The notes beneath the pieces were generated by a model. It saw only the letters and a program-made list of their open reading frames with translations. It made no database searches and was not told the DNA's origin. 64,000 nucleotides of DNA from Candidatus Moraniibacteriota bacterium (GTDB lineage: Bacteria; Patescibacteriota; Minisyncoccia; Moranbacterales; UBA1568): NCBI GenBank assembly GCA_030648835.1, contig JAUSGT010000002.1, positions 437,458 through 501,457 of the forward strand, read 5' to 3'. Below, in pieces: positions 17,174-64,000 of the stretch (the first letter of the stretch is position 1; every line of letters begins with the position of its first letter). The position numbers and the translations under genes are program-made.

Positions 17174-17197
17174 ATTTACCGATTGTGGTTGTTTTTC

Positions 17198-17662
17198 TCA
17201 GAGCCCCTCGAGCGCTTTGGGTAGAGCCTGTTTGATTATTGAGGCACACGCGCCGTAGGCTTCGTGTCCTCCTCCAATCGGGTCCGGTATCCCGTCGTTT
17301 TCACCATTCAGGATTACGATGCGGTTGATCGGCGCTCCTTCATTGATCAGAGCTCGCCTGACATGATGATCCACGACGATGATTCGATCGTAGCTTGAGA
17401 GATCAAATTTTGATACATGTCGCGGAGTGTGGCTGTCGAGGTCGAGGCCTGATTCTCTCGCTATCGCAATGCTGTGTCTGTTCGCGTTGGTGAATAGATT
17501 TACCCCAGGGAACAAACCGTGTCCGGGCAAAAGCTCGTCAAGTATGCCGCAACTTTCGACGATGGCATCAATACCGCGCTCGGCAAGCGCCTGTTGTGTG
17601 AAAACCATCATAAGCGGACTGCGGGCCATATTGCCCATGCATACGCACAAGACTCTCTTCAT
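17198..17662 (-). CDS. Low-molecular-weight protein tyrosine phosphatase / arsenate-reductase fold (LMW-PTP)
   Basis: P-loop CVCMGNMARSP (CX5R) at the N-terminus and a downstream DP motif (IPDPIGG). Confidence 0.8.
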   Translation of the reverse strand: MKRVLCVCMGNMARSPLMMVFTQQALAERGIDAIVESCGILDELLPGHGLFPGVNLFTNANRHSIAIARESGLDLDSHTPRHVSKFDLSSYDRIIVVDHHVRRALINEGAPINRIVILNGENDGIPDPIGGGHEAYGACASIIKQALPKALEGL

Positions 17663-17820
17663 TGGAGACCTCTTTGGGGAAAGAACGAAAAAATAGTATA
17701 GCCTGATATGATGATTTTGTCTAGTCCAATAGATGAGTGTACAATGAAAGAAATTGTGGTATTCGTATAAGTAAGAACCTCACATAGCAGGTAAAAGAAC
17801 AATTAACATACTCGAAGGAT

Positions 17821-18441
17821 ATGGACGAAAAAATTCTTAAGTCAATGAATCATATGAAAGTAGATACTGAACTTTTTGATAAAATTTTCATGAAGGTGAA
17901 ACCCCTGCTTCGTTCCGGGAGACCGGGAGATTATGCACATATCAAGAGCGTGTATCGGACGCTCGTTCGTCTCTGCGAAAAAGAAGACTATCCAATAAAT
18001 CCGCGCATCCTCGTTCCTGCCGGAATCCTGCATGACTGTGGTTTCGGTTTTCTCAAGAAGGAACATATGTATTATTTTACCGGGCAGAAAAAAGTGACTG
18101 CGATGAAAGAAGTGATCGGCGGCCTGACACTTGCCTATATTCCGGTGTGCCTTCAAGAATTCCAATTCTCCGATCAAGAAATAGAAGGCATAAAATATAT
18201 CGTGACATATTCCGATGAAAGCGTGCTTCCTATGGAAAATCCATCGCTTGAACTTCAGATTCTCCATGATCTCAATCTGTATGACCGTTTTCTGCCACAT
18301 CGGCTGAAGACCCTGAATACTCTTTATTCCGATCCCGTGAAAAGAAAGGCAGTTCTCGAAGATTCTTTGAGGTACATTATCTTGTCCACTTTCAAGAAAA
18401 AAGCGGAAAAACTGATGAAGAAGATAACGGAAAAATTTTGA
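17821..18441 (+). CDS. HD-domain metal-dependent phosphohydrolase
   Basis: H...HD...D pattern: AHIKSV, GILHDCG and LHDLNLYD. Confidence 0.55.
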   Translation: MDEKILKSMNHMKVDTELFDKIFMKVKPLLRSGRPGDYAHIKSVYRTLVRLCEKEDYPINPRILVPAGILHDCGFGFLKKEHMYYFTGQKKVTAMKEVIGGLTLAYIPVCLQEFQFSDQEIEGIKYIVTYSDESVLPMENPSLELQILHDLNLYDRFLPHRLKTLNTLYSDPVKRKAVLEDSLRYIILSTFKKKAEKLMKKITEKF

Positions 18442-18455
18442 CTTTTTGAAGTAAT

Positions 18456-20012: not shown

Positions 20013-21367
20013 ATATAAGTGATTTTCAAAATCGTAAATGGGTGGTGCTGGGAGCCAATTGTTACCCGCTGTATGCCGATTCTTTCGCGGAGCCGGTGAG
20101 CCAGGGGTACTACCGGACATATGGGATCCCCAATGAGGTGCTGGGGGTTTTCAACAAGGATTTTTTCGAATGGTTGTATGACAACTCACAACTCGTTGCA
20201 TTGTCAGAGAAATTATTGCCAGGTTTGTTGAGCACACCTTGGAATTACTATGATGAATGGCAAAAGAATGCGAAATCCTTTTCTGTTTTTCATGAATCAG
20301 TTATAGAAAAAGATTTTACAGCATTGTCCCATAAAGAGTTGGGTAAATTGGCAAAAGAATACCATCGTATTTTTTGGCTTCAGTTTGCTCCCAGTAATAT
20401 TATTGAGCCGCTTAGCTATTATTTTCAAAGCCGTTTCAAAAAAATGCTTACCCTCAAAGGTACGAAGGAAAATGAAATAGATCAGCTAATGGATTACTAT
20501 GGCCGATCCAAGTATCCAAACTATATTAAAGAATGTCTGGCTGAATACCGTTTGGCAAAAAATGAAGACGTCATACAAGCAGTTTTGAAGAAATATGCAT
20601 ACCTGGCGAACGATTACTTGGGGCCAAAAGTATTAACCAAAGCGTACCTGGATGAACTGTTAAAACAAGAAACGCATGAGCCGCATGTTGGCGCAGTCCC
20701 TGCTGTTTCTCCCGAAACGCAGTTGTTGCTAGAAGTTTTTCAGATGGTGGCTACTATCCAGGATGTCAGGAAAGCTTATAGCTTGATGATGATAGCTGGC
20801 GTACACAATTTTGCGATCGAATACGCCAAGCGGCTTAAACTGCCGGATACTCTTATATGGTATGCTCTCTGGAAAGAAATATATGCAGGCGATGTCAATG
20901 AAAAAAAGCTGGAAGAGCGTCGCGAACATAGCGTCATACTCTGGGGGAAAAAAGAAACGGTTGCTTGTGAAGGAATAGAGGCTGAGAAATTGGCAGCAGA
21001 TATCCATACGTTGGTTTTCGGCAGTACCAAAGATGTGAAAAAAGTGAAAGGCATATGTGCTTCTCCGGGAAAAGTCACGGGGCGAGCCGTCGTTGTGATG
21101 CATCCTGATGAATTCCACAAGGTGAAAAAAGGAGACGTGCTTTTTACTATGATGACGCGCCCGGAATATTTACCGGTTATGCAGCTGGCAGCCGCATTTG
21201 TCACTGATGAGGGAGGCATCACGTCGCACGCGGCGATTGTGGCGAGGGAAATGAAAAAACCATGTATCATAGCTACGAAAATAGGCACGAAAGTCGTGAA
21301 AGACGGTGATCTCGTCGAGGTAGACGCGGATAAGGGGATAGTGAGGATATTAGAAAAAAAGAAATAG
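20009..21367 (+). CDS. P5: paralog with a divergent N-terminal domain and the C-terminal phosphohistidine swivel domain
   Basis: C-terminal GGITSHAAIVAREMKKPCIIATKIGTKVVKDGDLVEVDADKG. Its start overlaps the P4 stop (ATGA). Confidence 0.7.
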   Translation: MNISDFQNRKWVVLGANCYPLYADSFAEPVSQGYYRTYGIPNEVLGVFNKDFFEWLYDNSQLVALSEKLLPGLLSTPWNYYDEWQKNAKSFSVFHESVIEKDFTALSHKELGKLAKEYHRIFWLQFAPSNIIEPLSYYFQSRFKKMLTLKGTKENEIDQLMDYYGRSKYPNYIKECLAEYRLAKNEDVIQAVLKKYAYLANDYLGPKVLTKAYLDELLKQETHEPHVGAVPAVSPETQLLLEVFQMVATIQDVRKAYSLMMIAGVHNFAIEYAKRLKLPDTLIWYALWKEIYAGDVNEKKLEERREHSVILWGKKETVACEGIEAEKLAADIHTLVFGSTKDVKKVKGICASPGKVTGRAVVVMHPDEFHKVKKGDVLFTMMTRPEYLPVMQLAAAFVTDEGGITSHAAIVAREMKKPCIIATKIGTKVVKDGDLVEVDADKGIVRILEKKK

Positions 21368-21432
21368 AAAAACTGCCAAAATTGGCAGTAGATAATAAGC
21401 ACGCTTTGCAATTATACACCTTTTTGGTGGTT

Positions 21433-21461
21433 TTGTCAATGTCAGACTTATCCTGTATTAT
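21433..21461 (+). promoter_or_regulatory. Candidate promoter TTGTCA-17-TATTAT upstream of the riboflavin kinase gene
   Basis: TTGTCA at 21433-21438, a 17-nt spacer and TATTAT at 21456-21461. Confidence 0.35.
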
Positions 21462-21520
21462 TGAAGAATCGGATGTAAGTAATACCGAATGCTTACGTCA
21501 AAAGAATATAGGTTAATCGT

Positions 21521-21895
21521 ATGTCAGGAACAAAACAGGTGCCTCTTTTGGTACAAAAAGGAAAAGTGGAGCGCGGAACGAAAATGGCCCGGAAGGTGGG
21601 ATATCCTACGGTGAATATTCACTATGATGATCCGGAAATTCTTACCGGTACGTATGCCGGGAAAGTAACGGTGGACAATACCGAATACCGTGCCGCGATC
21701 TATGTCAATCAAGAGCGGGAAGTATTGGAGGCGCATCTTTTGGATTTTTCGGGGGATTTGTATGGAAAAGAGATCACCGTTGTATTGCTGGAACGGTTGG
21801 TAGAAGCGAAAGAGTTCCGGGGAAGACTGGACGAACAAAGTTTCATTGATTGGGCAGTAAAAGAGGTACAGAAATACTTCAACATAAATTCCTAA
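21521..21895 (+). CDS. Stand-alone riboflavin kinase (flavokinase) domain
   Basis: ARKVGYPTVNIHY...GTYAGKV...YRAAIYV...EAHLLDF..DLYGKEITV matches the RibF C-terminal flavokinase domain. No adenylyltransferase domain is present. Confidence 0.75.
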   Translation: MSGTKQVPLLVQKGKVERGTKMARKVGYPTVNIHYDDPEILTGTYAGKVTVDNTEYRAAIYVNQEREVLEAHLLDFSGDLYGKEITVVLLERLVEAKEFRGRLDEQSFIDWAVKEVQKYFNINS

Positions 21896-21989
21896 TATCT
21901 AATTTCTAATTCCTAATAAAAAAGTAGAAATTATAAAATTAAAGATTTCATTAGATATTAGATATTGGTAATTAGAAATTTTTAAACGT
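21896..21989. promoter_or_regulatory. AT-rich island with reiterated palindromic motifs (AATATCTAAT/ATTAGATATT, TTCTAATT/AATTAGAA) between the riboflavin kinase gene and ribE
   Basis: Several copies of TAGATATT and AATTAGAA in both orientations within 94 nt. The base composition is far more AT-rich than the flanks. Confidence 0.4.
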
Positions 21990-22580
21990 ATGTTTACCGG
22001 CATTGTTCAAAAAATAGCGCCGCTTCTTTCTGCCACTCCCCAAGGGGAGTGTTTGCGGGTGCGGATCAAAAAGCCTCTTGGCTGGAAATTGACTCCGGGG
22101 CAAAGCGTGGCTGTGGATGGGGTGTGTTCCACGGTAGTTTTATGCAAGTCAGATTTTTTCGAAGTGGAGTATATGCAAGAGACGCTTATCAAAACAACAG
22201 TGAAAACATTTAAAAAAAACCAAGTTGTCAATCTCGAGCGATCTCTGACTCTCAAAGATTTTGTAGACGGAGGTTTGGTCCAGGGGCATGTGGATATGCG
22301 TGGCAAGGTAAAGAAGGTAGAAAAAACAGGGGAAATGGCCCTCCTTGAAATAACTCTTCCGGAAGCATTAAAGAAATATATCGCTCCTATCGGGTCTGTC
22401 ACAGTGAATGGTGTCAGTTTGACAGTGGCTCGGGTAAAGAAGGATACTTTCAGTATGGCACTTATCCCATACACGTTGGAACATACCAATCTCGGGCTTT
22501 TGAAAAAGGGTGACATGGTCAATGTAGAAGTGGATATTCTGGCGCGGTACATCGTCAATGCGCGAATAAAGGAAAGATAA
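21990..22580 (+). CDS. ribE: Riboflavin synthase alpha chain
   Basis: MFTGIVQ N-terminus and two lumazine-binding repeats (VAVDGVCSTV and VTVNGVSLTV). Confidence 0.85.
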   Translation: MFTGIVQKIAPLLSATPQGECLRVRIKKPLGWKLTPGQSVAVDGVCSTVVLCKSDFFEVEYMQETLIKTTVKTFKKNQVVNLERSLTLKDFVDGGLVQGHVDMRGKVKKVEKTGEMALLEITLPEALKKYIAPIGSVTVNGVSLTVARVKKDTFSMALIPYTLEHTNLGLLKKGDMVNVEVDILARYIVNARIKER

Positions 22581-22600
22581 TTCAGGTAACTTAGAGAAAT

Positions 22601-23068
22601 ATGCAAGTAAAAAACGCCGCCAAAAGAATAACAAAAAACGCTTCAGCGCTCCAGATCGGTATCGTGGTATCCAACTATTACGCCGATACGATTACCGGAA
22701 AACTTTTGCTTGGAGCAGAGGCTGTTCTGAAAGAATGGAAAGTGTTGCCAAAAAATATTACCGTGGTGCGTGTTCCGGGGTGTTTCGAAATTCCTTATGG
22801 CTGTATCACACTTCTAAAACAAAAAAAGTACGACGCTCTGATTACTTTGGGCTGCATTGTCAAAGGTGAGACGGAACACGATCGCTATATCGCTTCGGCG
22901 GTTTCGCAGGGCATTATGGATCTGACTTTGGCACACGGGGTGCCGATAGCGTTCGGCGTGCTTACCGTCAACAACTTGGCTCAGGCAAAAGCCCGTTCCA
23001 CGGGAAAAAATAACAAAGGAGTGGAAGCTGCTATCGCCGCGTTAGAGGCAACTTTCTTGAAAAAATGA
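22601..23068 (+). CDS. ribH: 6,7-dimethyl-8-ribityllumazine synthase
   Basis: Typical RibH motifs: IGIVVS..., VPGCFEIP, LGCIVKGETEHDRYI and GVLTV. Confidence 0.85.
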   Translation: MQVKNAAKRITKNASALQIGIVVSNYYADTITGKLLLGAEAVLKEWKVLPKNITVVRVPGCFEIPYGCITLLKQKKYDALITLGCIVKGETEHDRYIASAVSQGIMDLTLAHGVPIAFGVLTVNNLAQAKARSTGKNNKGVEAAIAALEATFLKK

Positions 23069-23997
23069 TAATACTGGGTGACTGTATGTTTGAAGAAATT
23101 CATAATAATGAAGCAAGCGAACAAGAAGAAGTAGTTTTGAAGGTGATTATTCAGAGACATGGGCCTAAACTGAGCGCTTCCGGAGAAAAAAACCAGCTGG
23201 CGACTTATTTTGCGGATTCAGTGAAACAAGGGTTTCAGGTAACCGGGATATCTGAGGGAGAGGGATTAGTTCATGTAAATTCAAGTCCTGTTACGAGGGC
23301 AGCAGACACGGCAAAGATTGATATTGCTGAACTTTCTCATACACAGCATCGTTTTAAAGATATGGTTGTAAAGAAAGAGGCACTTGCTGTTTTGTTTCAA
23401 CCGTTGGCCGATGCAGAAGATCCGCGGTTCGCGCGGGATTTGGAGAGGATAGTAAAAATGCAAAAAAAAATTGAGCCGGAAGTGCGCGAAGAAGTCCTTT
23501 TGGAGGAGTCAAATCTTGTGAGTGAAGAAAAAGAGGCGGAAATACGCAATGTCATCGATATGAGAGTTCTTACGGTATTGTTCAATGATGTGCATACTAA
23601 CAAGAAAACATTTGAAACGTCTTATACAGAACTAGCCGACAAGTTTGCGGAGAGATACAAGGGATTTTTGCAGCATATTGGTATGCTGAAGGAAAGAAAG
23701 CGCGAGGGAGGACGTCAGCCAGTAGACGAACCTTACGTGCAGGTAGATATTACCCATTCATTTCCTGTGATGTGTTTTTTGAAAAAATACCTGGTATTTG
23801 CAGATGGAGTGTCTGCAGAAAGCCTTTCCCCAGAAGATTTTTTTGAAAGAACAGGCGGGATTATCCGTGAGTCCGGTTTTATGGAAATGCTTTATATTTC
23901 CAACAGTAACAAGGATTTGAAAGAGGAAAAGATGGCCATAGCTATCCGCGGGTCTTTTGGTAAAGGGCAAGAATTTTCAGGGGAAGTTTCTTTTTAA
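23065..23997 (+). CDS. Hypothetical protein, possibly a histidine-phosphatase (PGAM/SixA-like) fold
   Basis: VIIQRHGPK near the N-terminus resembles the catalytic RHG motif. A later His lies in ITHSFPV. The assignment is weak. Confidence 0.35.
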   Translation: MIILGDCMFEEIHNNEASEQEEVVLKVIIQRHGPKLSASGEKNQLATYFADSVKQGFQVTGISEGEGLVHVNSSPVTRAADTAKIDIAELSHTQHRFKDMVVKKEALAVLFQPLADAEDPRFARDLERIVKMQKKIEPEVREEVLLEESNLVSEEKEAEIRNVIDMRVLTVLFNDVHTNKKTFETSYTELADKFAERYKGFLQHIGMLKERKREGGRQPVDEPYVQVDITHSFPVMCFLKKYLVFADGVSAESLSPEDFFERTGGIIRESGFMEMLYISNSNKDLKEEKMAIAIRGSFGKGQEFSGEVSF

Positions 23998-24007
23998 ATG
24001 ATTTTTT

Positions 24008-25588
24008 ATGCATGAAAAAATAAATTGGTTTTGGATGCATCGGAGAAATGCCAGTCTGCATCACTTCAGTTTTTTGATGACCGGTATGGCCAAGAGAGGA
24101 TGGTCGCCGGTGGTCGATTTTTGGTTTGATAACCAGGCAGTTGTCGGAGTACCAGGCAAAGGCTGTTATGTTTTTTATGATAAAGACCAGCTGAAAAGCG
24201 GGGTGAAGTATAAGAATATCCAAGACAGTATTGATAGTAATCCTGCCTTTGTAAAGGATTTTCAACGAAGAACGGATGAAATTTTTGGTGCGTTGTTTTT
24301 CAAATGCCTTGATATTGAAACAGACAATCTTTCTCTCCTGAGCGACAAGGAACTCCATAGGCTCTACCTCGGCTTCATAGATGCTATGACTGTTGGTCCG
24401 CTCATAACCGTACAACTTTTCGGTATTGAAGCTTGTTTTGATGAGAATTACCGGATCATACAATTTCTCAGGAAACGTTTGCAGGAGCTTGGCAAAGGAA
24501 AAGAATTTGAAACATATAAAGGTATTCTCTCGGTGAATATCGGAGAGACGGTGGCATTTACGGAAAAGAAAAATTTTTACCAGGTTGCGGCGGAAATGGC
24601 AAAAAATAAAGATATTTACGCGCTTTTTCAGAATGAGTCGTTGCAAGAAATAAGCGAGAAATTGAAAAAGTATCCTCGAGAGAACGCTCTTTTCGAGCGA
24701 CATACCAAGAAGTACGAGTGGGTGAATACCGAATACGTGAGCGGTGGCTGGTCTCGTGAGAAGTGGATTGGTGAATTCAAAACGGCGTTGACAGATGTTC
24801 TATTGCCGGATGAACAATTGAAGATTATTTTGCAGAGTTTTGAAGATCTCAATGCGGAAAGAAAAAAGACCATTGAAGAACTGGCTCCGCCCAAGGATGT
24901 TTTGCATGCTCTCAACTGTCTTTCTGAACTGATAGCGCAAAGAGATTGGACAAAAGGGTATTTTACGAAGGCTCTATTGAGCTACAATGTGCTTCTTGAT
25001 GAGATTGCCAGGAGGATCGGTAAAACACGAGAGGATATTCTGCTCTATTCTTATCATGAAATCGAAGCGTACTTTTTGGACGGAACGATTATTCCACAGG
25101 AAGAAATAGATGATCGGAAGAGCAACGGGTTTGTCATTCTCATCAAGCATGGGAGTTTCGAACTGGTTACCGGAAAAAAGAAAATACAGGAAGTTATTGA
25201 GAGTGAAAAAATTTCAGAACCGTTTGAAAAGGTGGCACATATTACCGAATTTAAGGGGCTGGGAGTTTCGCGGGGATGTATCCGGGGGAAGGTGCGGGTT
25301 TTGGAAGATGCCTCGAAGATTTCAGAGCTTGTAGAAGGAGAGATACTGGTCACCTACATGACGACAATCGAATTCATTCCTGCTTTTCGAAAAGCGGCGG
25401 CGGTAGTAACCGATGAAGGTGGAATGTCGTGTCATGCGGCGATCGTAAGTCGAGAATTCAAATTACCTTGTGTCGTCGGCACAAAAGTAGCGACACGCGT
25501 ATTGGAGACGGGCGATGAAGTCGAGGTAGACGCGGATAATGGAAAAGTAAAAATATTGACTAAACACTCATTTATTCAACAAACTTGA
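24008..25588 (+). CDS. P6: paralog with a divergent N-terminal domain and the C-terminal phosphohistidine swivel domain
   Basis: C-terminal GGMSCHAAIVSREFKLPCVVGTKVATRVLETGDEVEVDADNG. Confidence 0.7.
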   Translation: MHEKINWFWMHRRNASLHHFSFLMTGMAKRGWSPVVDFWFDNQAVVGVPGKGCYVFYDKDQLKSGVKYKNIQDSIDSNPAFVKDFQRRTDEIFGALFFKCLDIETDNLSLLSDKELHRLYLGFIDAMTVGPLITVQLFGIEACFDENYRIIQFLRKRLQELGKGKEFETYKGILSVNIGETVAFTEKKNFYQVAAEMAKNKDIYALFQNESLQEISEKLKKYPRENALFERHTKKYEWVNTEYVSGGWSREKWIGEFKTALTDVLLPDEQLKIILQSFEDLNAERKKTIEELAPPKDVLHALNCLSELIAQRDWTKGYFTKALLSYNVLLDEIARRIGKTREDILLYSYHEIEAYFLDGTIIPQEEIDDRKSNGFVILIKHGSFELVTGKKKIQEVIESEKISEPFEKVAHITEFKGLGVSRGCIRGKVRVLEDASKISELVEGEILVTYMTTIEFIPAFRKAAAVVTDEGGMSCHAAIVSREFKLPCVVGTKVATRVLETGDEVEVDADNGKVKILTKHSFIQQT

Positions 25589-44332: not shown

Positions 44333-45352
44333 TTGTGTTTTCCTAAAATTATGTTCACCAGGAAAAAAATCATTATTAGCGGCATACTCATCGTGGCGGT
44401 AGGCGGTTTTTTATCCTATCGAAGCCGTACTGCAGTGGAAGTAGTCCAGACGGAAACCGTGAAGCGTGGTGATGTGGTGGAAACGGTGAGTGTGACCGGA
44501 GAACTGATGCCGGCGGAATACGCTGATCTTTCTTTTCCGGGAGCGGGAGTGATTGATCGGGTTTTTGTGAAAGAAGGAGATATGGTGGCGGTAGGCGGCA
44601 GAATTGCTTCTCTTGACCGGTCGGTCTTGTGGTCGCAACTGAAGGAATCCCGTATCGCGCTGGCTATTGTCGAAGAGAGTGAAAAATTGGCTCGTCGGCA
44701 TGGTTGGAAAAGTTTGAATGAAGAAGAACGGGCTGCCAAAAAACTTACTACGGAACAATCCAAAGAAAAAGTTCGTACCATCGAAGCAGAGATGCAAAAG
44801 GGTGTTCTTTTGTCGCCGCTGGGCGGCCAGGTGACGAAACTGGATGCCCGTCTGGGCGAAGTTGCCAGCTTGGGGGAAGTGGTGGCACATGTCGTCAAGG
44901 CCGGGGAGTTTGTCATCGAAGCTCGGGTGCCGGAATCGGATATAACCAAAATAACCATTGGTATGCGATCAAAAGTTACCTTTGACGCTTTCCGTGCCGA
45001 TGAGATTTTTGACGCCGAGGTGACGGAAATCAAGCCTGCCTCAACCGTTGTGCAGGATGTGGTTTCTTATAAGGTGAAGTTTCGTTTGGGAAATGTCGAC
45101 AGCCGTCTGAAAGAAGGGATGACGGCCAATATCGATATTGAAACCGCCAAGCGAGAACGCGTTCTTATGGTGCCGTCTCGAGTGTTTGTCAAAGAAGGAG
45201 GCAAGTCCTTTGTAGAGGTGAAACAGGCCAATGGCTCATTTGTGAAAACAGAGGTCACAACGGGGCTGGAAGGTGACGATGGCACGATTGAAATCACATC
45301 CGGTCTGAAAGAGGGGAATGAAGTTTCCACTTTGGCTACGCAAAAGAAATGA
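44333..45352 (+). CDS. Periplasmic adaptor subunit (HlyD/MacA family)
   Basis: N-terminal TM helix, then coiled-coil, lipoyl and beta-barrel-like segments. It is followed by an ABC ATPase and FtsX permeases. Confidence 0.7.
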   Translation: MCFPKIMFTRKKIIISGILIVAVGGFLSYRSRTAVEVVQTETVKRGDVVETVSVTGELMPAEYADLSFPGAGVIDRVFVKEGDMVAVGGRIASLDRSVLWSQLKESRIALAIVEESEKLARRHGWKSLNEEERAAKKLTTEQSKEKVRTIEAEMQKGVLLSPLGGQVTKLDARLGEVASLGEVVAHVVKAGEFVIEARVPESDITKITIGMRSKVTFDAFRADEIFDAEVTEIKPASTVVQDVVSYKVKFRLGNVDSRLKEGMTANIDIETAKRERVLMVPSRVFVKEGGKSFVEVKQANGSFVKTEVTTGLEGDDGTIEITSGLKEGNEVSTLATQKK

Positions 45353-46068
45353 GCCTGATCTCCGTCAAAAATCTGGAGAAGATATACGATAACGACGGGG
45401 TCAAGACCGGAGCGCTCCGCAATGCCACATTTGCCATAGAGAAAGGAGAATTCATCTCTATTATGGGGCCATCGGGATCGGGGAAATCGACGCTGATGCA
45501 AATCTTGGGACTGCTCGATCGCGCCACAGGCGGAGCGTATCTTTTGGATGGCAAAGATGTCTCTCAATTTTCTGACGATGAATTGGCACGTCTGCGGAAC
45601 AAAAAAATAGGCTTTGTATTTCAGGCATTCAACCTTTTGCCGAAAACAAATGTGTTTGAAAATGTCGAATTGCCTCTTCTCTACGATGATTTTCCGGTTG
45701 AGAGCAATGAAAAAAATGTTTTGGCCGCGCTCGAGGCGGTCGATATGCTTCATCGCAAGGGCTATTTGTCGAATCAGCTTTCCGGTGGCGAAAAGCAACG
45801 CGTGGCTATCGCGCGAGCGCTTGTCAACAACCCGGAAATTATTTTTGCCGATGAACCGACGGGGAATTTGGATTCCAAGTCCGGTCTTCAGGTGATGGCC
45901 ATTTTACAGAAATTGAACAATGCCGGGCATACTATCGTCTTGGTGACGCATGAGACATACACTGCCGAACATGCCAAGCGCGTTCTCCTCATGAAAGACG
46001 GACAGATTGTTGGTGACCACCCGGTCGTCAAGCGCCGCACTGCGGAAAGCGGAAACTTTTTGAAATGA
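45349..46068 (+). CDS. ABC transporter ATP-binding protein (MacB/LolD-type)
   Basis: Walker [10 protein letters not shown], signature [15 protein letters not shown] and Walker [13 protein letters not shown]. Confidence 0.85.
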
Positions 46069-47306
46069 AATTCTCTGACCCTCTTAAAATTTCTTATCGG
46101 ACACTCACGGCCTCGAAACTCAGGTTTTTTTTGACGGTGCTTGGTGTGGTCATCGGGGTGGCGGCGGTGATCATGGTGATGGCTATCGGAGCCAGTGCTC
46201 AGAAACTGGTATTGTCACAGGTAGAGAGTGTTGGGTCCAATTTGATAGGCGTGTTACCGGGGGCTTCGGAAGAGAAAGGCCCGCCCGCCGCGGCTCTCGG
46301 TATCGTCACAACGACATTTACCAATGATGATTTGAAAGCCATACGGGAACGGCGTAACGCGCCGCATCTTGTGGCGGTGTCGGGATATGTCACTGGCGCG
46401 GGCACGATCGAATCATCCGACAAATCTCTGGAAATCAGTTTTCAGGGTGTTTCACCGGATGTGACGGAGATAGAAAATATCACCGTGGCGAAAGGACGTT
46501 TCTTTTTTCCGGAAGAAGAGAGCGATCTTTCGCGCGTGGTGGTGCTCGGTGCCACGCGAGCCAAGGAACTTTTCCCCAATCGTGAGGCGCTCGGTGAAAC
46601 GGTGACGCTCAAAAATATTCCCTTCAAGGTGGTGGGTGTTTTGGAAGAGCGGGGAGCATCGGCTTTTTCCAATCCGGACACGATGGTGTATGTACCGCTT
46701 CAGACGGCGCAGAAACTTTTGCTCGGTATCAAGTATCTCAATTTCGCGCGTGGTAAAGTGGACACGGTGGAAAATATCGAACGTTCCATTGCCGATGTGA
46801 CGGCGCTGCTCCGTAAGCGTCACGATATCAAAGACAATCAGGAATTGGACTTTTCGATTCGGAGCACGGCCGCCGCGCTGGAAGTTTTGACGACCATCAC
46901 CAATGTGCTCACCTATTTCCTTATCGCCATCGCTTCCATCTCACTTCTGGTCGGAGGTATCGGTATCATGAATTCCATGCTCATTTCTGTCTCGCAACGA
47001 ATACGGGAAATCGGTTTGCGCAAGGCAGTCGGCGCGCGCAAGGCGCACATTATTTCCCAATTCCTCATCGAATCGTCTTTTGTCACGATTGTCGGCGGAG
47101 TGGTAGGAATTTTGTTCGGTATCGCGGTAACGTTTCTCGCGTCTATCATCATTGTCAAACTCGGATATACGTGGCAGTTTCTCGTCCCGCTGTCGTCGGT
47201 TATCATTGGTTTCTGTGTTTCTTTTGTTATCGGCATTGTCTTTGGTCTCTATCCGGCTGTCAAAGCTTCTCGGGTCAGTCCGATGGAAGCACTCAGATAC
47301 GAATAA
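46065..47306 (+). CDS. FtsX-like ABC permease (MacB-type, large extracytoplasmic domain)
   Basis: A TM helix, a ~230-aa periplasmic domain and three C-terminal TM helices with the FtsX motif. Confidence 0.75.
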   Translation: MKFSDPLKISYRTLTASKLRFFLTVLGVVIGVAAVIMVMAIGASAQKLVLSQVESVGSNLIGVLPGASEEKGPPAAALGIVTTTFTNDDLKAIRERRNAPHLVAVSGYVTGAGTIESSDKSLEISFQGVSPDVTEIENITVAKGRFFFPEEESDLSRVVVLGATRAKELFPNREALGETVTLKNIPFKVVGVLEERGASAFSNPDTMVYVPLQTAQKLLLGIKYLNFARGKVDTVENIERSIADVTALLRKRHDIKDNQELDFSIRSTAAALEVLTTITNVLTYFLIAIASISLLVGGIGIMNSMLISVSQRIREIGLRKAVGARKAHIISQFLIESSFVTIVGGVVGILFGIAVTFLASIIIVKLGYTWQFLVPLSSVIIGFCVSFVIGIVFGLYPAVKASRVSPMEALRYE

Positions 47307-47455
47307 CCAAGAACCAAAATCCAATGACCAAGAAGACCAAAATATCTCATTGTAACTGATGTGAATAGAGTTTTGAATTTTTGAAAGTTGATTACTTGAT
47401 CTTATTGTTTCTTGGAATTTGGTGATTGGTTATTGCTAAGGATACATTACAATAT

Positions 47456-48706
47456 ATGAAATACTTACAACCGTTACGTTTTGCCCTAAAAACGATTGTT
47501 ACCCATAAAACAAGGACTGCTTTGGCGCTCTTGGGCGTTGTCATTGGTGTTTTCGCGGTGGTAGTAGTGACGACGCTTGGCGACGGTGTGAAGGGATTTA
47601 TTTTGGGGCAAGTAGAAAGCTTCGGTACGGATTTGATCCAGGTGGAAGTAAAAATTCCCAGTACCGGGACAATGTCAAGCGAAAATGCCACCTCGCGCGC
47701 GCAGGGTACGCAAATTACGACGCTGACGGTCAAAGACGGAGAGGCGATGCGGAAAGTTCCCAATGTCAAAGCCGTTTATGCCGGGAGTATCGGTCAGGAA
47801 CGGGCGACATACGGCTCTGTCGGAAAACGGATTTTCTTACTCGGAGCCGGAGCCAATGCGGCGCTGGTGGATGAGAATATCAAACTGTCGAGCGGACGAT
47901 TCTTCACTCCGGATGAAGATGCCAGTTTGGCGCGAGTGGTCGTTTTGGGGTCGGAAACGAAAACTACTTTTTTTGGCGAGAGTGAAGCAGTGGGGGAATT
48001 CATCACGCTGAAAGGAGAAAAATACCGAGTGATCGGAGTATTGGCGCCACGTGGCACAGTCGGTTTTCTCAATTTTGATACTTTTACGTATGTGCCGATT
48101 CAGACATTGGAAAAGAAGATTCTTGGGGTCGAGTACGTGCAATTTGTTTCCGTCAAGCTGGCCAATTCCGCTTTGGAATCCGAAACCGTAGCCGACCTGG
48201 TGGCGCTTATGCGCAAGCGCCACGATATCGGAAGTCCCGATAAGGATGACTTTTCCGTCACCTCTACCAAAGAAGCCCAGAAGACATTGGCGAGCGTGCT
48301 TGGGTCAATCACTATCCTGCTTTTGGCGCTGACCTCCATTTCACTCGTCGTGGGCGGTGTGGGGATTATGAACGTGATGTACGTTTCGGTATCCGAACGG
48401 ACAAGTGAGATCGGTCTCCGCAAAGCGGTGGGGGCGACAGCCGCCGGCATCCTGCGGCAATTCTTATTTGAGGCGCTCATTATTACGTTTATGGGAGGTT
48501 TGATCGGGATCGGATTGGGGATGTTGCTTTCTTTCGGACTCAGTTTGCTTTTTTCATATCTCGGTTTCAATCTGCCACTGCATTTCTCGTTCTCCTCGTT
48601 TCTCTTGGGAGCGGGGTTCTCTATGGCGGTGGGGCTCATATTTGGTGTGGCTCCGGCTATCAGGGCGTCCAAACTTTCTCCGATGGAAGCCTTGCGGAAA
48701 GAGTAA
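47456..48706 (+). CDS. Second FtsX-like ABC permease (MacB-type)
   Basis: Same architecture as the previous permease. The track start at 47426 is a TTG; the ATG at 47456 (MKYLQPLRFALKTI...) is preferred. Confidence 0.75.
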   Translation: MKYLQPLRFALKTIVTHKTRTALALLGVVIGVFAVVVVTTLGDGVKGFILGQVESFGTDLIQVEVKIPSTGTMSSENATSRAQGTQITTLTVKDGEAMRKVPNVKAVYAGSIGQERATYGSVGKRIFLLGAGANAALVDENIKLSSGRFFTPDEDASLARVVVLGSETKTTFFGESEAVGEFITLKGEKYRVIGVLAPRGTVGFLNFDTFTYVPIQTLEKKILGVEYVQFVSVKLANSALESETVADLVALMRKRHDIGSPDKDDFSVTSTKEAQKTLASVLGSITILLLALTSISLVVGGVGIMNVMYVSVSERTSEIGLRKAVGATAAGILRQFLFEALIITFMGGLIGIGLGMLLSFGLSLLFSYLGFNLPLHFSFSSFLLGAGFSMAVGLIFGVAPAIRASKLSPMEALRKE

Positions 48707-51477: not shown

Positions 51478-53154
51478 ATGAGACAACACATAAAAAAACG
51501 CTTCCATTTTGCGGGAGTACTCTTGCTTGGCTTGATTTGCGCAATCATTGCCTATCCACAAGCGGTCAAATCCATTTCACCGCTTTTTCGTGTTGTGGAA
51601 AAAATGAAAATCAACGAAGGATTGGATTTGCAAGGGGGTATTCACTTGGAATACAAGGCGGATATGTCACAGGTTCCAAGTGAAAAGGTGGACGCCGCTC
51701 TTTCCGCCGCGGAAGCCGTGATCGAACGAAGAGTGAATGCTTTTGGTGTGGGTGAACCACTCGTGCAGCTTTCGCGGTCGGGGACGGAGAGGCGTATCAT
51801 TGTCGAATTGCCGGGTATCAAAGACATCGAACAAGCCAAGAAAATGATCAAAGAAACTCCGTTTCTTGAATTTCGTGAACCGGCCGGTCCGGAAGCGGAA
51901 AAGCAATTTGACGTTTTGAATCAAGAGACCAAAAGAGAGGCAGAAGCTATACTTGAGCTGGCGAAGAAGGGTGAAGATTTTGCCGCTCTGGCCAAAGAAT
52001 GGAGCGAAGATCCGGGATCCAAAGACAGGGGTGGCGATCTGGATTTTGCCAAGAAGGGTACATTCGTGCCTGAGTTTGATACGGTTATTTTCGATCCCAA
52101 TTTCAAATCGGGAGAAGTGAGTCCAAATCTTGTGGAGAGCCAATTCGGCTGGCATATCATCAAAAAAATCGAAGAACGCGGTGAAGGTAACAACAGGGAA
52201 GTCCGCTCCGCCCATATTCTTTTTACGAAACGCACGCTTGATCAGTACCCGGATTTGAAATGGGTGGTGACCGGTTTGACTGGCAAAAATTTGAAGAGCG
52301 CTACCGTTGATTATCAAAGTCAGGGAGTGGGCTCACCACAGGTAGCGCTTCAATTCGACAGTGAGGGGACAAAATTGTTTGCGGAAATTACTAAACGCAA
52401 TCTTGGCAAGCCGGTGGCCATACTTCTCGACAAGGAAATTATCAGCCAGCCAACTGTTCAAAACGAAATCGTGGGAGGCCAGGCAGTCATTACCGGCAAT
52501 TTCACAATGCAACAGGCAAATGATCTCGTGAAACGTCTCAACGAGGGTGCTCTCCCGGTCCCGATCACTTTGGTATCGCAACAGAGTGTGGATGCCAGTC
52601 TTGGCCAGAGTGCGCTCCAAAAGAGCTTGTTCGCGGGTCTCGTCGGTCTTGGGGCAGTGGCTGTATTTATGATTCTCTATTATCGTTTGCTCGGTGTCGT
52701 GGCAGTTGTGGCACTTCTTCTGTATACGGCGATGCTCCTCACTATTTTCAAACTCTCTGTCTTTACTCCCTTCGCGATTACGGTGACTTTACCGGGTATC
52801 GCCGGTTTCATCTTGTCGATCGGTATTGCCGTCGATGCCAACGTGCTTATTTTCGAGCGCACGCGCGAGGAACTTTCATACGGTAAAACTGTTATCAAAT
52901 CTTTGGTGGAAGGGTTTCGCCGGGCTTGGCCCAGTATTCGTGATGGGCATGTTTCGACGCTTATCACAACGGTAATCCTTATGGCTTTTGGTACCGGATT
53001 CGTAAAGGGATTCGCGGTTATTCTGGCCTTAGGTGTGCTCCTCTCGCTTTTCACCGCGGTGGTGTTGGTGCGAGTCTCGGTTATGTTTGTCGCCGGTGAT
53101 TGGATGGAGCGCCATCCGAAACTTTTGGTCTCACCAAAGAAATTGTTAGAATAA
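51478..53154 (+). CDS. secD: Protein translocase subunit SecD with an inserted parvulin-like PPIase signature in the first periplasmic domain
   Basis: SecD motifs GLDLQGGIHL and GIAVDANVLIFERTREEL with six C-terminal TM helices. Residues ~150-260 read EDFAALAKEWSEDPGSKDRGGDLDFAKKGTFVPEFDTVIFDP...GEVSPNLVESQFGWHIIKK. Confidence 0.85.
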   Translation: MRQHIKKRFHFAGVLLLGLICAIIAYPQAVKSISPLFRVVEKMKINEGLDLQGGIHLEYKADMSQVPSEKVDAALSAAEAVIERRVNAFGVGEPLVQLSRSGTERRIIVELPGIKDIEQAKKMIKETPFLEFREPAGPEAEKQFDVLNQETKREAEAILELAKKGEDFAALAKEWSEDPGSKDRGGDLDFAKKGTFVPEFDTVIFDPNFKSGEVSPNLVESQFGWHIIKKIEERGEGNNREVRSAHILFTKRTLDQYPDLKWVVTGLTGKNLKSATVDYQSQGVGSPQVALQFDSEGTKLFAEITKRNLGKPVAILLDKEIISQPTVQNEIVGGQAVITGNFTMQQANDLVKRLNEGALPVPITLVSQQSVDASLGQSALQKSLFAGLVGLGAVAVFMILYYRLLGVVAVVALLLYTAMLLTIFKLSVFTPFAITVTLPGIAGFILSIGIAVDANVLIFERTREELSYGKTVIKSLVEGFRRAWPSIRDGHVSTLITTVILMAFGTGFVKGFAVILALGVLLSLFTAVVLVRVSVMFVAGDWMERHPKLLVSPKKLLE

Positions 53155-53286: not shown

Positions 53287-54183
53287 ATGTTACAGATTAT
53301 TCAGAAAAGAAAATATGCGTATCTGTTTTCCGGGATACTGACCACGGCGAGTGTGGTTTTGCTTCTGACCTGGGGGCTCAACTTCGGTATCGACTTCAAA
53401 GGAGGGACACTTATGGAAGTGCAATTCTCCCAAAATCCTGTACCGCGAGTGTCCGAAGTGGAAAAGTCTTTTGCGGATCTCTCGCTTCAGAGTCTGACCG
53501 TGCAGGCTACGGACAACCGCGGGATGTTGTTTCGTTATCTCGCGTCCGATGAGAATGCCAATGAACAGGTGCTCCAAAAATTGAAATCCTTTGATCCCAA
53601 TGTCGTGCAGTTGCGCACGGACTTTATCGGTGGCTCGGTCTCCGACCAGATCAAAAGGAATGCGTTGACCGGCATCGTACTTTCCGTGCTTTGCATCGCT
53701 CTCTATATTGCTTGGGCGTTTCGTCGTGTGTCCGGAGCGGTGACGTCATGGGAATACGGACTGGGGGCGGTTATCGCGCTGGCGCATGATATTCTTGTGG
53801 TCATCGGTATCTTTGTGCTTTTGGGAAGGTATTATAATATTGAGGTAGGGGTACCGTTTATCGCCGCGCTTTTGACCATCTTGGGTTACAGTGTGAATGA
53901 CACCATCGTCGTGTATGACCGGGTGCGCGAGAATCTGCTCCGCTCGCAGAGAAAAGAAGATTTTGAAATCACCGTCAATCGTTCGCTCAACGAAACACTC
54001 GGCCGTTCTATCAACACCTCGCTCACGGTTATTATCACTCTCTTCGCCATTACGATTTTCGGGGGAGACAGCATCCGTTACTTTGGTTTGGCGCTTCTCA
54101 TCGGAGTAATCTTTGGAACATACTCATCCATTTATATCGCGTCCGCTTTGCTCGTCACTCGCTATAGGATGAAGACAAAATGA
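53287..54183 (+). CDS. secF: Protein translocase subunit SecF
   Basis: GIDFKGGTLMEV motif and six TM helices with SecD/SecF family signatures. Confidence 0.85.
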   Translation: MLQIIQKRKYAYLFSGILTTASVVLLLTWGLNFGIDFKGGTLMEVQFSQNPVPRVSEVEKSFADLSLQSLTVQATDNRGMLFRYLASDENANEQVLQKLKSFDPNVVQLRTDFIGGSVSDQIKRNALTGIVLSVLCIALYIAWAFRRVSGAVTSWEYGLGAVIALAHDILVVIGIFVLLGRYYNIEVGVPFIAALLTILGYSVNDTIVVYDRVRENLLRSQRKEDFEITVNRSLNETLGRSINTSLTVIITLFAITIFGGDSIRYFGLALLIGVIFGTYSSIYIASALLVTRYRMKTK

Positions 54184-59939: not shown

Positions 59940-59981
59940 TGGCTAGTGAGTATTGATTTTTGTAGCGAAATGTGCTATAAA

Positions 59982-60048
59982 GTCATTCTGAGTGAAATGA
60001 AGAATCCCGATATATTTCAACGAGACTCTTCGCTGCGCTCGGAGCGAC
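59982..60048 (+). repeat. R3: degenerate copy of the hairpin repeat between pheT and rnpB
   Basis: GTCATTCTGAGTGAAATGAAGAATCCCG...CGAGACTCTTCGCTGCGCTCGGAGCGAC. The blocks are in the same order as R1 and R2 but the arm complementarity is weaker. Confidence 0.5.
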
Positions 60049-60077
60049 ACTGTGTGTCGGTTTCTCGTTCTTTCCCA

Positions 60078-60482
60078 AAACAGATCAGATTGTCGCGCGA
60101 CTGCCTCTTTTGAGAGGCGGAGTGAGGAAAGTCCGGACACTCGCCAATTTTGTCTGCTCTCTGCATTATATGGAGCTATAGGGGCTTTAGTGTTTGGAGC
60201 AGACAAAATTGGCAGCAGGGTAGTGGGTAATTCCCATCTCTCGCCTTTGGCGGGATGAGGTGCGAGCAGTGACGCCAATGTCGAAAGGCAAAGGATTCCT
60301 TCGGGAATAAGTCTGTCGAAAGGCAGAAGTGAAACGGCTAAATCCTTACTTGAGTGCAAGGTCGTGCCCCGAGCAATCGGGGAGAACCGCAAAGATTTTG
60401 TCGGTAACGGCGAAGCAAGAGAAATGACAGTCGCCCTGAGAGAAATCAAAGGGGACAGAATCCGGCTTATACATCTGTTTTG
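60078..60482 (+). ncRNA. rnpB: RNase P RNA (bacterial type A-like)
   Basis: The P4 5' strand GAGGAAAGTCCGGAC and the P4 3' strand GGGACAGAATCCGGCTTAT. P1 pairs AAAACAGAT (60078-60086) with ATCTGTTTT (60472-60480). The P2 strands GCGACTG and CAGTCGC. The length (~400 nt) fits. Confidence 0.85.
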
Positions 60483-60502
60483 GGAAAAGATTGGAAGCAT
60501 CC

Positions 60503-61973: not shown

Positions 61974-62046
61974 AAATAGTTATATCTTACCTTACAGCGC
62001 TTTTACAGCGGTCCGACCGCTGTAAATATTAGGAAGACTCCCTGAA

Positions 62047-62075
62047 GTACAGGGAGTTTTTTTTATTTTTCTATT
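62047..62075 (+). terminator. Rho-independent terminator after the sugar-transferase gene
   Basis: ACTCCCTG-AAGTA-CAGGGAGT hairpin followed by a T8 run. It is preceded by another hairpin, ACAGCGGTC/GACCGCTGT. Confidence 0.65.
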
Positions 62076-62157
62076 TATTTTTTCTTGACAGAAAATCTTA
62101 TTTTTCTTTTTTATTTTTGGTATAATTCGAGAATAAGAAATTACTTATTACTTTTTT

Positions 62158-64000
62158 ATGTGGAGGGTAAAAAATATTACAAGGTTCAGTGCCTTGCTGT
62201 TTTTCGTATTTTTTTATTTCCTGTCATCTCCTTCTGCTTCCGCCACGACGACCGTTTCCGGGGTGCTCCTTGGCAGCGCTACGTGGACCAAAGCGAATGG
62301 ACCCTACCTTGTAAGAGAAGTCACCGTTCCCGTGGGAGCTACGCTTACTATCGAGCCAGGAACTGTCGTGAAGTTGAGTGGCGTCTCGGCGCTGTATGCT
62401 TTTGGCACTATTACGATAGGGGCGCCTGATGCCGAAAAAGTGATCATTACTTCATTTGCCGATGATACTGTCGGTGGAGATACGAATAATAATGGTTCTG
62501 CCACAGTCCCGACCCGGTTTGATTGGTGCAGTATCGGCGCTCATACGAAAGGGATTATCAATATCACGAATACCAGCATACGTTATGGCGGTTGCTCTGT
62601 GTATGGACAGGTATACAATTTTGGCGGCACCATCACTATTACCGATTCGCAGTTTTTGGACAGCGGACAATACGGCATTTTGAACGCCAGTGGAAAGCTT
62701 ACCCTTACTTCTTCTGAGGTCACTGGAGCGGAATATGGCGTCAGGTTCCATAGCGGTACCATAACCATGCGGGACAACAGTATCCATGACAACACGGCGT
62801 ATAGCCTCATCAATACTTCTCTCGCGCATACCGTCATCGACGCGACCAATAATTGGTGGGGTGACGCGACAGGTCCGTGGCATCTGACAAATATCAACGG
62901 TTTGGGAAACAAGGTTTCAAATTATGTCATATTCAATCCTTGGCTCGGGAGTGATCCGTCGCAGAAAATTGATCTTTGCGCCGAAAATTGTTTTTCCAGC
63001 GTGCTGTTTTTACCGGGATTGGAAGCCAGTCGCCTGTATACCGATGCTGGTCGAGTATGGGAACCACAGAGCGACACGGATGCCGAGAAATTGTATCTCG
63101 ATAGTGATGGGAAGAGCGTGCGCGGGGATATTTCCACAAAGGATGTCATTGACAACGCGTACGTACCGGTCAAGGGGAATATCTACCAATCATTTCTCGC
63201 CGATCTCGACCGTTGGAAGAACACCGATGGTCTCATAGCGGATTATGTTGTTGCCCCATACGATTGGCGGCTCTCTCTGGATGACATACTGAATAACGGC
63301 AAGAAAACAGGAGAAAATATTTCGTACACAGAGGCGACAGCATCCCCATATATTATAGAAGAATTGCGTCGTCTCGCGAGTACTTCGAAATCGGGCAAGG
63401 TCACCCTTATCGCGCATTCCAATGGAGGATTGGTAGCCAAGGCGCTCGTCAGCAAACTGGGAGCGGAAGCGGCCGAGCTTATCGATAAAATCGTTTTTGT
63501 GGCGGTACCGCAATCCGGAACGCCGCAAGCAATTGGCGCCATACTTCACGGATATGATCAGGGACTTCCCGTAAACTGGTTCCCTTTCGCCATGGCGCCG
63601 AAAACAGCGCGCACGTTGGCGCAGAATATGCCGAGCGTCTACAACCTCCTGCCATCGAGCGCGTATTTCTCGGGTAGCGGGAGCGGTACTACGACTCCGG
63701 TGGTTACTTTTGAAGATGGGGCGCTGACGGACACTTTCATCGGTAAATATGGCAAGAAGATCGATACCGCGTCCGAGCTGAACGATTTTCTCGTCGATAC
63801 TGATGGCAAGGTGGCGGCTGATTCCAGCGATACCGTCAGCCCGAGCAGGGTGAATCCCGGATTGCTTCTGGGTGGAAAAAATGCGCACCAGTCGCTGGAC
63901 GATTTGGTTATTCCGGCAGCCATCTCTGTGTACCAGATAGCCGGATTTGGAGAAGAAACGTTGGGGACGATCAAGTACTGGACCGGAAAAGAGTGTCTTC
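62158..64000 (+). CDS. Secreted protein with a signal peptide, parallel beta-helix repeats and a C-terminal alpha/beta-hydrolase (lipase/esterase-like, GxSxG) domain; 3' end beyond the window
   Basis: My own translation from the ATG at 62158 is open through 64000 with no stop: MWRVKNITRFSALLFFVFFYFLSSPSASA...; then TITITDSQFLDSGQYGILNASGKLTLTSSEV... and NNWWGDATGPW (beta-helix); then VTLIAHSNGGLVAKAL (nucleophile elbow). It is missing from the supplied ORF track, presumably because it has no in-window stop. Confidence 0.65.
   Translation, partial: MWRVKNITRFSALLFFVFFYFLSSPSASATTTVSGVLLGSATWTKANGPYLVREVTVPVGATLTIEPGTVVKLSGVSALYAFGTITIGAPDAEKVIITSFADDTVGGDTNNNGSATVPTRFDWCSIGAHTKGIINITNTSIRYGGCSVYGQVYNFGGTITITDSQFLDSGQYGILNASGKLTLTSSEVTGAEYGVRFHSGTITMRDNSIHDNTAYSLINTSLAHTVIDATNNWWGDATGPWHLTNINGLGNKVSNYVIFNPWLGSDPSQKIDLCAENCFSSVLFLPGLEASRLYTDAGRVWEPQSDTDAEKLYLDSDGKSVRGDISTKDVIDNAYVPVKGNIYQSFLADLDRWKNTDGLIADYVVAPYDWRLSLDDILNNGKKTGENISYTEATASPYIIEELRRLASTSKSGKVTLIAHSNGGLVAKALVSKLGAEAAELIDKIVFVAVPQSGTPQAIGAILHGYDQGLPVNWFPFAMAPKTARTLAQNMPSVYNLLPSSAYFSGSGSGTTTPVVTFEDGALTDTFIGKYGKKIDTASELNDFLVDTDGKVAADSSDTVSPSRVNPGLLLGGKNAHQSLDDLVIPAAISVYQIAGFGEETLGTIKYWTGKECL

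Follow-up and report, generated by a model that had tools for sequence, protein, structure and literature searches.

A gene interrupted by the 3′ edge of the window

The stretch analysed here (the window, 64,000 nucleotides of contig JAUSGT010000002.1 from a Candidatus Moraniibacteriota bacterium) ends inside a gene for a putative exported protein in which a predicted beta-helix is followed by a lipase-like hydrolase domain. Translation of positions 62158–64000 of the forward strand gave 614 sense codons and no stop up to the edge, codon 615 beginning at base 64000. No start codon lies between the in-frame stop TAA at 62134 and the ATG at 62158, and the chance of finding 614 open codons in a random frame with the base composition of the window is approximately 3e-16. 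The initial annotation had described this frame as uninterrupted over more than 610 codons, which the retranslation reproduced, and had supposed that the list of open reading frames (ORFs) omitted it for want of a stop inside the window. The behavior of the listing program confirmed this explanation, since an ORF that does not terminate within the source sequence is left out of its output. The ORF is a real gene, and its initial reading was essentially correct; no paralogue was found elsewhere in the 64-kb window. The following features were recognized in the gene and upstream of it.

62002–62026, + strand: first hairpin 3′ of the sugar-transferase stop codon; folding energy −15.2 kcal/mol, z = −4.6 (200 shuffles).
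62031–62072, + strand: intrinsic-terminator-like hairpin (62031–62063) followed by a U-run, from a terminator scan; −18.1 kcal/mol, z = −4.1.
62118–62126, + strand: extended −10-like motif TGGTATAAT, perfect, 31 nt 5′ of the ATG, with an AT-rich spacer; read directly from the sequence.
62158–64000, + strand: partial coding sequence of 614 codons, from the start of the gene to the window edge.
62158–62244, + strand: predicted Sec-type signal peptide, aa 1–29 MWRVKNITRFSALLFFVFFYFLSSPSASA; basic n-region, hydrophobic core, A-S-A, no lipobox Cys.
62248–62916, + strand: predicted right-handed beta-helix (NosD/CASH-like), aa 31–253; cap NNWWGDATGPW at aa 231–241 (nt 62848–62880).
62917–62997, + strand: linker with a conserved CxxxC pair (C274 and C278; nt 62977–62991); family consensus 'CxxxCxSNVLFLPG'; low model confidence at aa 265–280.
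62998–63999, + strand: LCAT/LPLA2-fold alpha/beta-hydrolase, aa 281–614, from Pfam LCAT and Foldseek; the N-terminal ~80% of the domain, without the Asp and His.
63007–63018, + strand: oxyanion-loop motif F284-L-P286-G287; F284, P286 and G287 invariant in 71 sequences; aligns with 'VIFIPGIMG' of Tle4.
63256–63270, + strand: P-Y-D-W-R motif, aa 367–371; Y368, D369, W370 and R371 invariant in 71 sequences; YDWR in 69/69 full-length family ORFs.
63412–63426, + strand: nucleophile elbow A419-H-S421-N-G423; H420, S421, G423 and G424 invariant in 71 sequences; elbow in 69/69 ORFs.
63562–63594, + strand: aromatic/hydrophobic loop GLPVNWFPFAM, aa 469–479, with conserved flanks; local model confidence (predicted local distance difference test, pLDDT) down to ~62.

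The upstream sugar-transferase gene (Bac_transf) ends with a stop codon at 61973. A strong terminator had initially been placed at 62047–62075; a terminator-like hairpin does lie upstream of the lipase-like gene, but its location is 62031–62063, and a second hairpin occupies 62002–62026. The consensus promoter scan did not call the −10-like motif, and no −35 hexamer was found 16–18 nt away from it, so that TGGTATAAT at 62118–62126 is best described as promoter-like only. Given the terminator-like hairpins upstream and the promoter-like motif, the gene looks like its own transcription unit, which agrees with the terminator and AT-rich promoter-like sequence described at first.

Based on six relatives from which the missing length was estimated, the full product is predicted to have ~1,000–1,110 residues. 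The part past the window edge would comprise the catalytic Asp and His and ~390–500 more residues of beta-rich (beta-sandwich) domains.

Predicted signal peptide and beta-helix module

In the signal peptide that had been called typical, the n-, h- and c-regions are visible within residues 1–29, as is an A-S-A motif. In the AlphaFold model, this region is a lone low-confidence helix (residues 2–22), and the family consensus retains an N-terminal hydrophobic stretch followed by AxA. We consider it a predicted Sec signal on the basis of its visible sequence features, its hydropathy and its conservation in the family. Export of the product is supported by this signal peptide, by the conserved Cys pair, and by the SecD and SecF genes encoded in the same window.

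Residues 31–253 were modelled as an all-beta, regularly spaced structure (pLDDT 92–98). The Pfam Beta_helix score of the window protein (25.5 bits, E = 1.1e-5) falls just below the cutoff of 25.9; however, the beta-helix repeats ending in NNWWGDATGPW, as first described, are made likely by the AlphaFold model, by a match of the family profile to the NosD chain 7o0y_A in the PDB across the N-W-W-G-D motif (E = 0.0045), and by the many homologues that carry Beta_helix, NosD or Beta_helix_4 matches in Pfam. A beta-helix fold match was absent among the Foldseek matches listed, where lipase matches dominated. The NosD/CASH beta-helix proteins (PF13229, PF05048; PDB 7o0y) resemble the window protein in the PbH1-like repeats of residues 31–253 and in the cap, whose NNWWGD aligns with 'GNYWSDYLG' of NosD. 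In contrast with NosD, the window protein has its predicted beta-helix joined, as an accessory module, to a lipase-like enzyme, and the gene lacks a copper-chaperone context. The region N-terminal to the hydrolase varies among relatives, in which a CBM96 or a surface Ig-like domain replaces the beta-helix, and some family members have MBG or CHB_HEX_C inserts downstream.

The hydrolase domain has the LCAT/LPLA2 fold

The Pfam LCAT profile (PF02450) matched residues 327–506 of the window protein with 47.3 bits (cutoff 21; E = 2.3e-12), and full-length relatives cover positions ~30–389 of the 392 of this profile. PGAP1, DUF676, DUF7379 and DUF900 gave sub-threshold matches only, on the elbow region. 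A likeness to PGAP1, LCAT and class-2 lipases had been suggested; the LCAT assignment is above the cutoff, but those to PGAP1 and DUF676 are not. When the AlphaFold model of the window fragment (mean pLDDT 90.6) was compared with the PDB using Foldseek, the top matches were LPLA2 (E ~1e-6), Tle4 (7.6e-6) and human LCAT. The full-length relative P0001, which is 59% identical and was modelled at pLDDT 90.3, matched LPLA2 with E = 1.8e-10 and a TM-score of 0.65–0.67, and LCAT with a TM-score of 0.56–0.63; the polyhydroxybutyrate depolymerase PhaZ7 and family I.5 lipases were weaker structural matches, with much lower scores. Together, the Pfam assignment and the fold matches to LPLA2, LCAT and Tle4 bear out the alpha/beta-hydrolase segment proposed initially.

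S421 is the predicted catalytic serine. The IAHSNGG sequence previously reported as a nucleophile elbow of the GxSxG type is indeed an elbow, at residues 419–423, but of the type A-x-S-x-G; sequence alignment matched it to the elbow of Tle4 and to that of a PDB lipase chain. The PYDWR motif is an LCAT-family signature, and the loop GLPVNWFPFAM is a candidate lid or membrane-insertion loop. In relatives, a G-D pair (in DGDGTV) is located ~219 residues past the Ser, and a His (HADILE; H[AS]D[IL]) ~37 residues further, each conserved in at least 90%; both the DGDGTV Asp and the His are intact in the two closest relatives. The P0001 model places the Asp at a strand end and the His in a loop before a helix, the canonical post-beta7/post-beta8 arrangement. 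A search of the Asp/His segment against the PDB, made to align it with LPLA2/LCAT, returned spurious matches only, and the family profile reached only Tle4 and NosD in the PDB.

The window protein thus shares with lysosomal phospholipase A2 (LPLA2/PLA2G15; PDB 4x90–4x97) and lecithin:cholesterol acyltransferase (LCAT; PDB 5bv7, 6mvd, 5txf) a PF02450 match above cutoff, the overall fold, the Ser nucleophile elbow, PYDWR and the oxyanion 'LPG' loop, its location is predicted to be extracytoplasmic as well, and its homologues have the Asp (DGDGTV) and the downstream His at the canonical positions. Unlike these eukaryotic enzymes, to which it is 13–16% identical, it is bacterial and comes from the ultra-small bacteria of the Candidate Phyla Radiation (CPR). 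In the CPR proteins the domain sits in a chain of 1,000–1,300 residues with an N-terminal binding module and ~350 residues of C-terminal beta-sandwich, the elbow reads AHSNG, and the enzyme is paired with a protein with four transmembrane segments. We consider it very probable that the enzyme is of the LCAT/LPLA2-fold phospholipase A/acyltransferase type.

A glycan-targeted carbohydrate esterase or a polyester depolymerase on an LCAT-like scaffold would also be compatible with N-terminal modules of the carbohydrate type (NosD/CASH beta-helix, CBM96, CHB_HEX_C) and with the presence of PhaZ7 among the weaker structural matches. However, the best and most complete matches are the phospholipid-acting LPLA2/LCAT (TM-score 0.6–0.67 over the whole target) and Tle4, whereas PhaZ7 and the family I.5 lipases score far lower, and Pfam LCAT is above its cutoff. 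For these reasons we judge a non-lipid esterase very improbable, and we retain a lipid-directed enzyme as the preferred interpretation.

Family, relatives and source lineage

An exhaustive family search with the hydrolase part alone as the query, clustered at 50% identity, yielded 2,908 clusters at E ≤ 1e-3 and 1,474 at E ≤ 1e-30, and the start of the hydrolase domain in the family ranged from residue 1 to ~774. The nearest protein, P0005 from a Joint Genome Institute (JGI) metagenome, is 76% identical (hydrolase part only), and the next nearest, a 1,316-residue protein from a Patescibacteria metagenome-assembled genome (MAG), is 70% identical and has a duplicated beta-helix. In a scan of GTDB-representative genomes, the best match had 70% identity. 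The named sources of the family are Moranbacteria, Kaiserbacteria, Yonathbacteria, Paceibacterota, Minisyncoccota and Parcubacteria; among the GTDB genomes with the hydrolase part, two MAGs depart from this, one under the unverified label Bdellovibrionales and the other under the label Saccharibacteria, likewise unverified. All relatives of the Saccharibacteria-labelled member are of the Parcubacteria type, and therefore it gives no indication that the family occurs in cultivated CPR.

The contig labelled 'uncultured Bdellovibrionales' (L002, CAYTED010000001.1; 204 kb) carries a complete cassette of the enzyme and its small partner, the enzyme being 50% identical to the window protein. It may be a CPR contig that was wrongly labelled or binned, or it may reflect horizontal transfer into a predatory lineage.

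The gene order of the window, TyrRS-(Sua5)-PheS-PheT-...-Bac_transf-[lipase-like gene], recurs in a Moranbacteria MAG, and the source is a Moranbacteria/Parcubacteria-type CPR bacterium. The CPR-named homologues and the gene order shared with this MAG support the view, advanced in the initial annotation, of a reduced-genome and probably host-associated (CPR/Patescibacteria) organism. Synteny was also expected with the closest genome (L001), but was ruled out, since the upstream gene there is unrelated.

In the Moranbacteria MAG GCA_016182385.1, both family paralogues (L003:12080-12691 and L162:9530-9858) are frame-disrupted around the catalytic-Asp region. The corresponding proteins P0003 and P0004 end just short of the Asp motif, and L003 lacks the DGDGTV segment. 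Both contigs break at the same repeat sequence, which suggests an assembly or paralogue collapse of the repeated 3′ part rather than true pseudogenes. In view of the frame disruption and of these shared contig breaks, the shortening of P0003 and P0004 was rejected as evidence on the window gene.

Family members are labelled in databases as 'hypothetical', 'lipase/acyltransferase domain-containing' or, by JGI, 'pimeloyl-ACP methyl ester carboxylesterase'; the last label is unsupported by the Pfam LCAT assignment. In the literature on LCAT or lipases in Patescibacteria or Parcubacteria, we found no paper on this family and no characterised CPR member of the LCAT family. The window gene is one more uncharacterised member of a large database-resident family, of which the fold class is known.

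A small membrane protein accompanies the enzyme

An ORF of ~135–145 residues was found directly downstream of the enzyme gene in 7 of 10 GTDB loci. We added 80 further metagenome loci, in which the small protein was sought with a hidden Markov model, and 76 loci with a complete enzyme gene and room downstream served as the denominator. The partner abuts the enzyme gene in 62 of these 76, with a gap of −33 to +42 nt in nearly all; it is present in more than one copy in 12 loci, sometimes in tandem, and in 5 of the remaining loci a different small ORF with 3–4 predicted transmembrane helices occupies the same place. Across ~90 loci compared, no other neighbour was common to more than 8, which leaves the partner as the only conserved neighbour. 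The observations on the partner family come from loci L001, L002, L005–L008, L011, L081–L160 and L161. Two examples, both downstream of a lipase-like gene, are:

L001:10446-10871: partner gene.
L161:4075-4482: partner gene.

Four transmembrane segments are predicted in the partner, with a pair of Cys residues on the extracytoplasmic side; its motif SLITYK..E.F..W is invariant, and one loop is rich in Gly. At least 512 homologues were found, all annotated as 'hypothetical', and every named source is a CPR bacterium; searches against Pfam and the PDB gave no family above noise and no structural relative. The two closest relatives of the window gene both have it, as do 21/21 family members that share their type of C-terminus. 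The 64-kb window holds no copy of it; therefore, the partner gene is expected just past base 64000, and by analogy with the 62/76 loci it would be a gene of ~140 residues with four transmembrane segments within a few tens of bases 3′ of the enzyme gene. No paper describing the CPR-specific architecture or its near-obligate four-transmembrane partner was found, and the linkage of the partner in 62/76 loci is new here.

Nine family enzymes have a C-terminal transmembrane anchor of their own, and 7 of these 9 still keep the partner, which rules out that the partner is a mere membrane anchor. These members are anchored to the producer and so speak for a family that acts at its surface.

The pairing of a lipase fold with an adjacent gene recalls Tle4/TplE, the phospholipase effector of the Pseudomonas aeruginosa type VI secretion system (T6SS; PDB 4r1d), whose sequence is nearer to the window enzyme than that of any other solved structure (E = 0.11 with phmmer, 2.3e-4 with the family profile). 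The oxyanion loop and the elbow of both proteins align, and the Tle4 gene also lies beside a small dedicated partner gene (Tli4). In contrast, Tle4 is delivered by the T6SS, whereas the window enzyme has a predicted Sec signal and extra N- and C-terminal domains. Tli4 is a soluble periplasmic protein, and the CPR partner is an integral protein with four transmembrane segments and is unrelated to it. No T6SS gene was a conserved neighbour in the ~90 loci, and the partner is not of the Tli4 type. The resemblance to Tle4–Tli4 is limited to the lipase fold and the adjacent partner gene.

This resemblance raises the main rival interpretation, a toxin–immunity pair in which the exported phospholipase would lyse the membranes of a host, prey or competitor, as T6SS Tle lipases do, and the four-transmembrane protein would shield the single membrane of the producer. 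Tight linkage together with multiple copies is a pattern seen with immunity genes, and the partner is both tightly linked (62/76) and multi-copy in 12 loci. Tle4 is the only PDB lipase reached by the family profile and a top structural match, and the retention of the partner by 7/9 anchored enzymes indicates that it is not just an anchor. In addition, a 2024 perspective proposed that phospholipases breach host envelopes in Patescibacteria. However, no secretion-system or toxin-delivery domain was detected in the enzyme, which has a predicted Sec signal only; the partner resembles neither the Tli proteins nor any family; the producer-anchored members better fit a contact-dependent surface enzyme than a released toxin; and toxicity is presumed by analogy. 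We regard a toxin–immunity pair as rather unlikely, bearing in mind that it overlaps with the surface lipid enzyme that we favour rather than excluding it.

The gene context suggests yet another possibility, that of an envelope enzyme directed at the producer itself, which would acylate its own glycolipids, lipoglycans or surface proteins, with the small membrane protein presenting the substrate. LCAT-family enzymes such as LCAT, LPLA2 and PDAT are both acyltransferases and hydrolases. A Bac_transf gene lies directly upstream both in the window and in the syntenic Moranbacteria MAG, and GT4, LPG_synthase_TM and PMT genes lie downstream in the closest relatives. However, the small membrane protein is the only neighbour conserved across the ~90 loci, and therefore the glycan-gene context is local and not a feature of the family. 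Furthermore, the gene is insulated by terminator-like hairpins, and the highly variable N-terminal binding modules point to a variety of external targets and not to a single housekeeping substrate. A self-directed enzyme seems to us distinctly unlikely, although less so than the non-lipid esterase.

Proposed role of the enzyme

We favour, with moderate confidence, a cell-surface, Sec-exported serine acyl-esterase of the LCAT/LPLA2 fold and the phospholipase A/acyltransferase type that acts on the lipids of a host or a neighbouring cell. After cleavage of the signal peptide, the N-terminal NosD-like beta-helix would probably dock the enzyme to a glycan surface, and the beta-sandwich domains (~390–500 residues) would complete the protein. 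Ser421, together with the Asp of DGDGTV and the His expected beyond the edge, would form the catalytic triad. As suggested by LCAT, LPLA2, PDAT and Tle4, Ser421 would attack an acyl ester of a glycerolipid to give an acyl-enzyme; this would be resolved by water (phospholipase A activity) or by an acceptor (acyltransferase activity), leaving a lysolipid. In this way, phospholipids of the host, of a neighbouring cell or of debris could be processed for an organism of a group reported to lack lipid synthesis, and the partner, located in the producer's own membrane, might serve as a protector or as an acceptor.

Several observations weigh against this interpretation. Neither the partner gene nor the catalytic Asp and His fall within the window, and all three are predicted from relatives with 59–76% identity; the sequence identity to LPLA2/LCAT is just 13–16%, and a lipid substrate is assigned by analogy. 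The swappable modules (beta-helix/CASH, CBM96, CHB_HEX_C) are of a kind typical for enzymes that bind glycans, so that the substrate could be a non-lipid ester. Glycosyltransferase, flippase-like and PMT genes surround the locus in the closest relatives, a context that would also fit a role in building the envelope. Finally, the family was not seen in cultivated Saccharibacteria.

Exported enzymes of the LCAT/LPLA2-fold class convert a diacyl phospholipid into a lysolipid and a transferable acyl chain. CPR bacteria are reported to lack the synthesis of fatty acids and phospholipids and to have lysolipid-rich membranes; lipidomic work suggests that the lysolipids may be taken from neighbours, and a 2024 perspective states that no mechanism of lipid uptake or breakdown has been identified for Patescibacteria/CPR. 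Secreted phospholipases have been proposed for lipid harvesting in CPR. One of them is Vamp_34_196 of Vampirococcus lugosii (PMC8080830), a CPR predator for which an absence of phospholipid synthesis is reported and which would use this secreted lipolytic enzyme to harvest host lipids; its likeness to the window enzyme is one of proposed biology. The host-interaction factor put forward in the initial annotation would fit these published views on the dependence of CPR on external lipids. A role in lipid acquisition is plausible, although we hold it with less confidence than the surface activity itself.

A further step would be to regard the enzyme and its four-transmembrane partner as the missing lipid-acquisition module of Parcubacteria/Moranbacteria-type CPR. 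The enzyme, docked on the host by its variable N-terminal module, would strip acyl chains or lysolipids from host phospholipids, and the small membrane protein would receive or flip the products, or shield the producer's bilayer. We think it improbable, on balance, that the pair constitutes such a module; if it did, both the reported lack of lipid synthesis in CPR cells and the abundance of lysolipids reported in their membranes would find an explanation. Much of the diversity of bacteria belongs to the Patescibacteria/CPR, and a large, largely CPR-restricted family tied to an unknown membrane protein offers a concrete, assayable two-gene candidate that addresses an acknowledged gap in the biology of these organisms, that is, lipid uptake and breakdown. 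The value of this result is at the level of the family, for which the evidence is solid on the identity of the protein and speculative on its function.

Other features of the window

The window contains an unusual cluster of paralogues, consisting of six tandem genes at 12072–25588 (+ strand), each of which ends in a PF00391 'PEP-utilizers' phosphohistidine swivel domain. The N-terminal parts of the five shorter genes gave no Pfam match. The genes of the array are:

12072–14633, + strand: PF00391 gene, with PPDK_N.
14638–15675, + strand: PF00391 gene.
15729–17111, + strand: PF00391 gene.
18456–20012, + strand: PF00391 gene.
20009–21367, + strand: PF00391 gene.
24008–25588, + strand: PF00391 gene.

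SecD (51478–53154, + strand) contains a PPIC-type Rotamase domain at residues 148–233, between the SecD_1st and P1-head subdomains, and is a translocon subunit fused with a folding catalyst; SecF follows at 53287–54183. The gene at 3194–5203 (+ strand) encodes a coupling ATPase that is VirD4/TrwB-like and carries a treble-clef zinc finger. The region 44333–48706 (+ strand) encodes an HlyD protein, an ABC ATPase and two MacB/FtsX-type permeases, possibly an export or extraction machine, which is unlinked to the lipase-like gene. No Pfam match was obtained for a 185-residue ORF at 59943–60500 (− strand), which lies in the interval from PheT to the sugar transferase, and no gene is called in the PheT–Bac_transf gap of the syntenic Moranbacteria locus; this ORF may be spurious or lineage-specific. 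No tRNA genes or Rfam families were found in the 64-kb window. Almost all genes of the window are on the + strand, and the GC skew is positive throughout.

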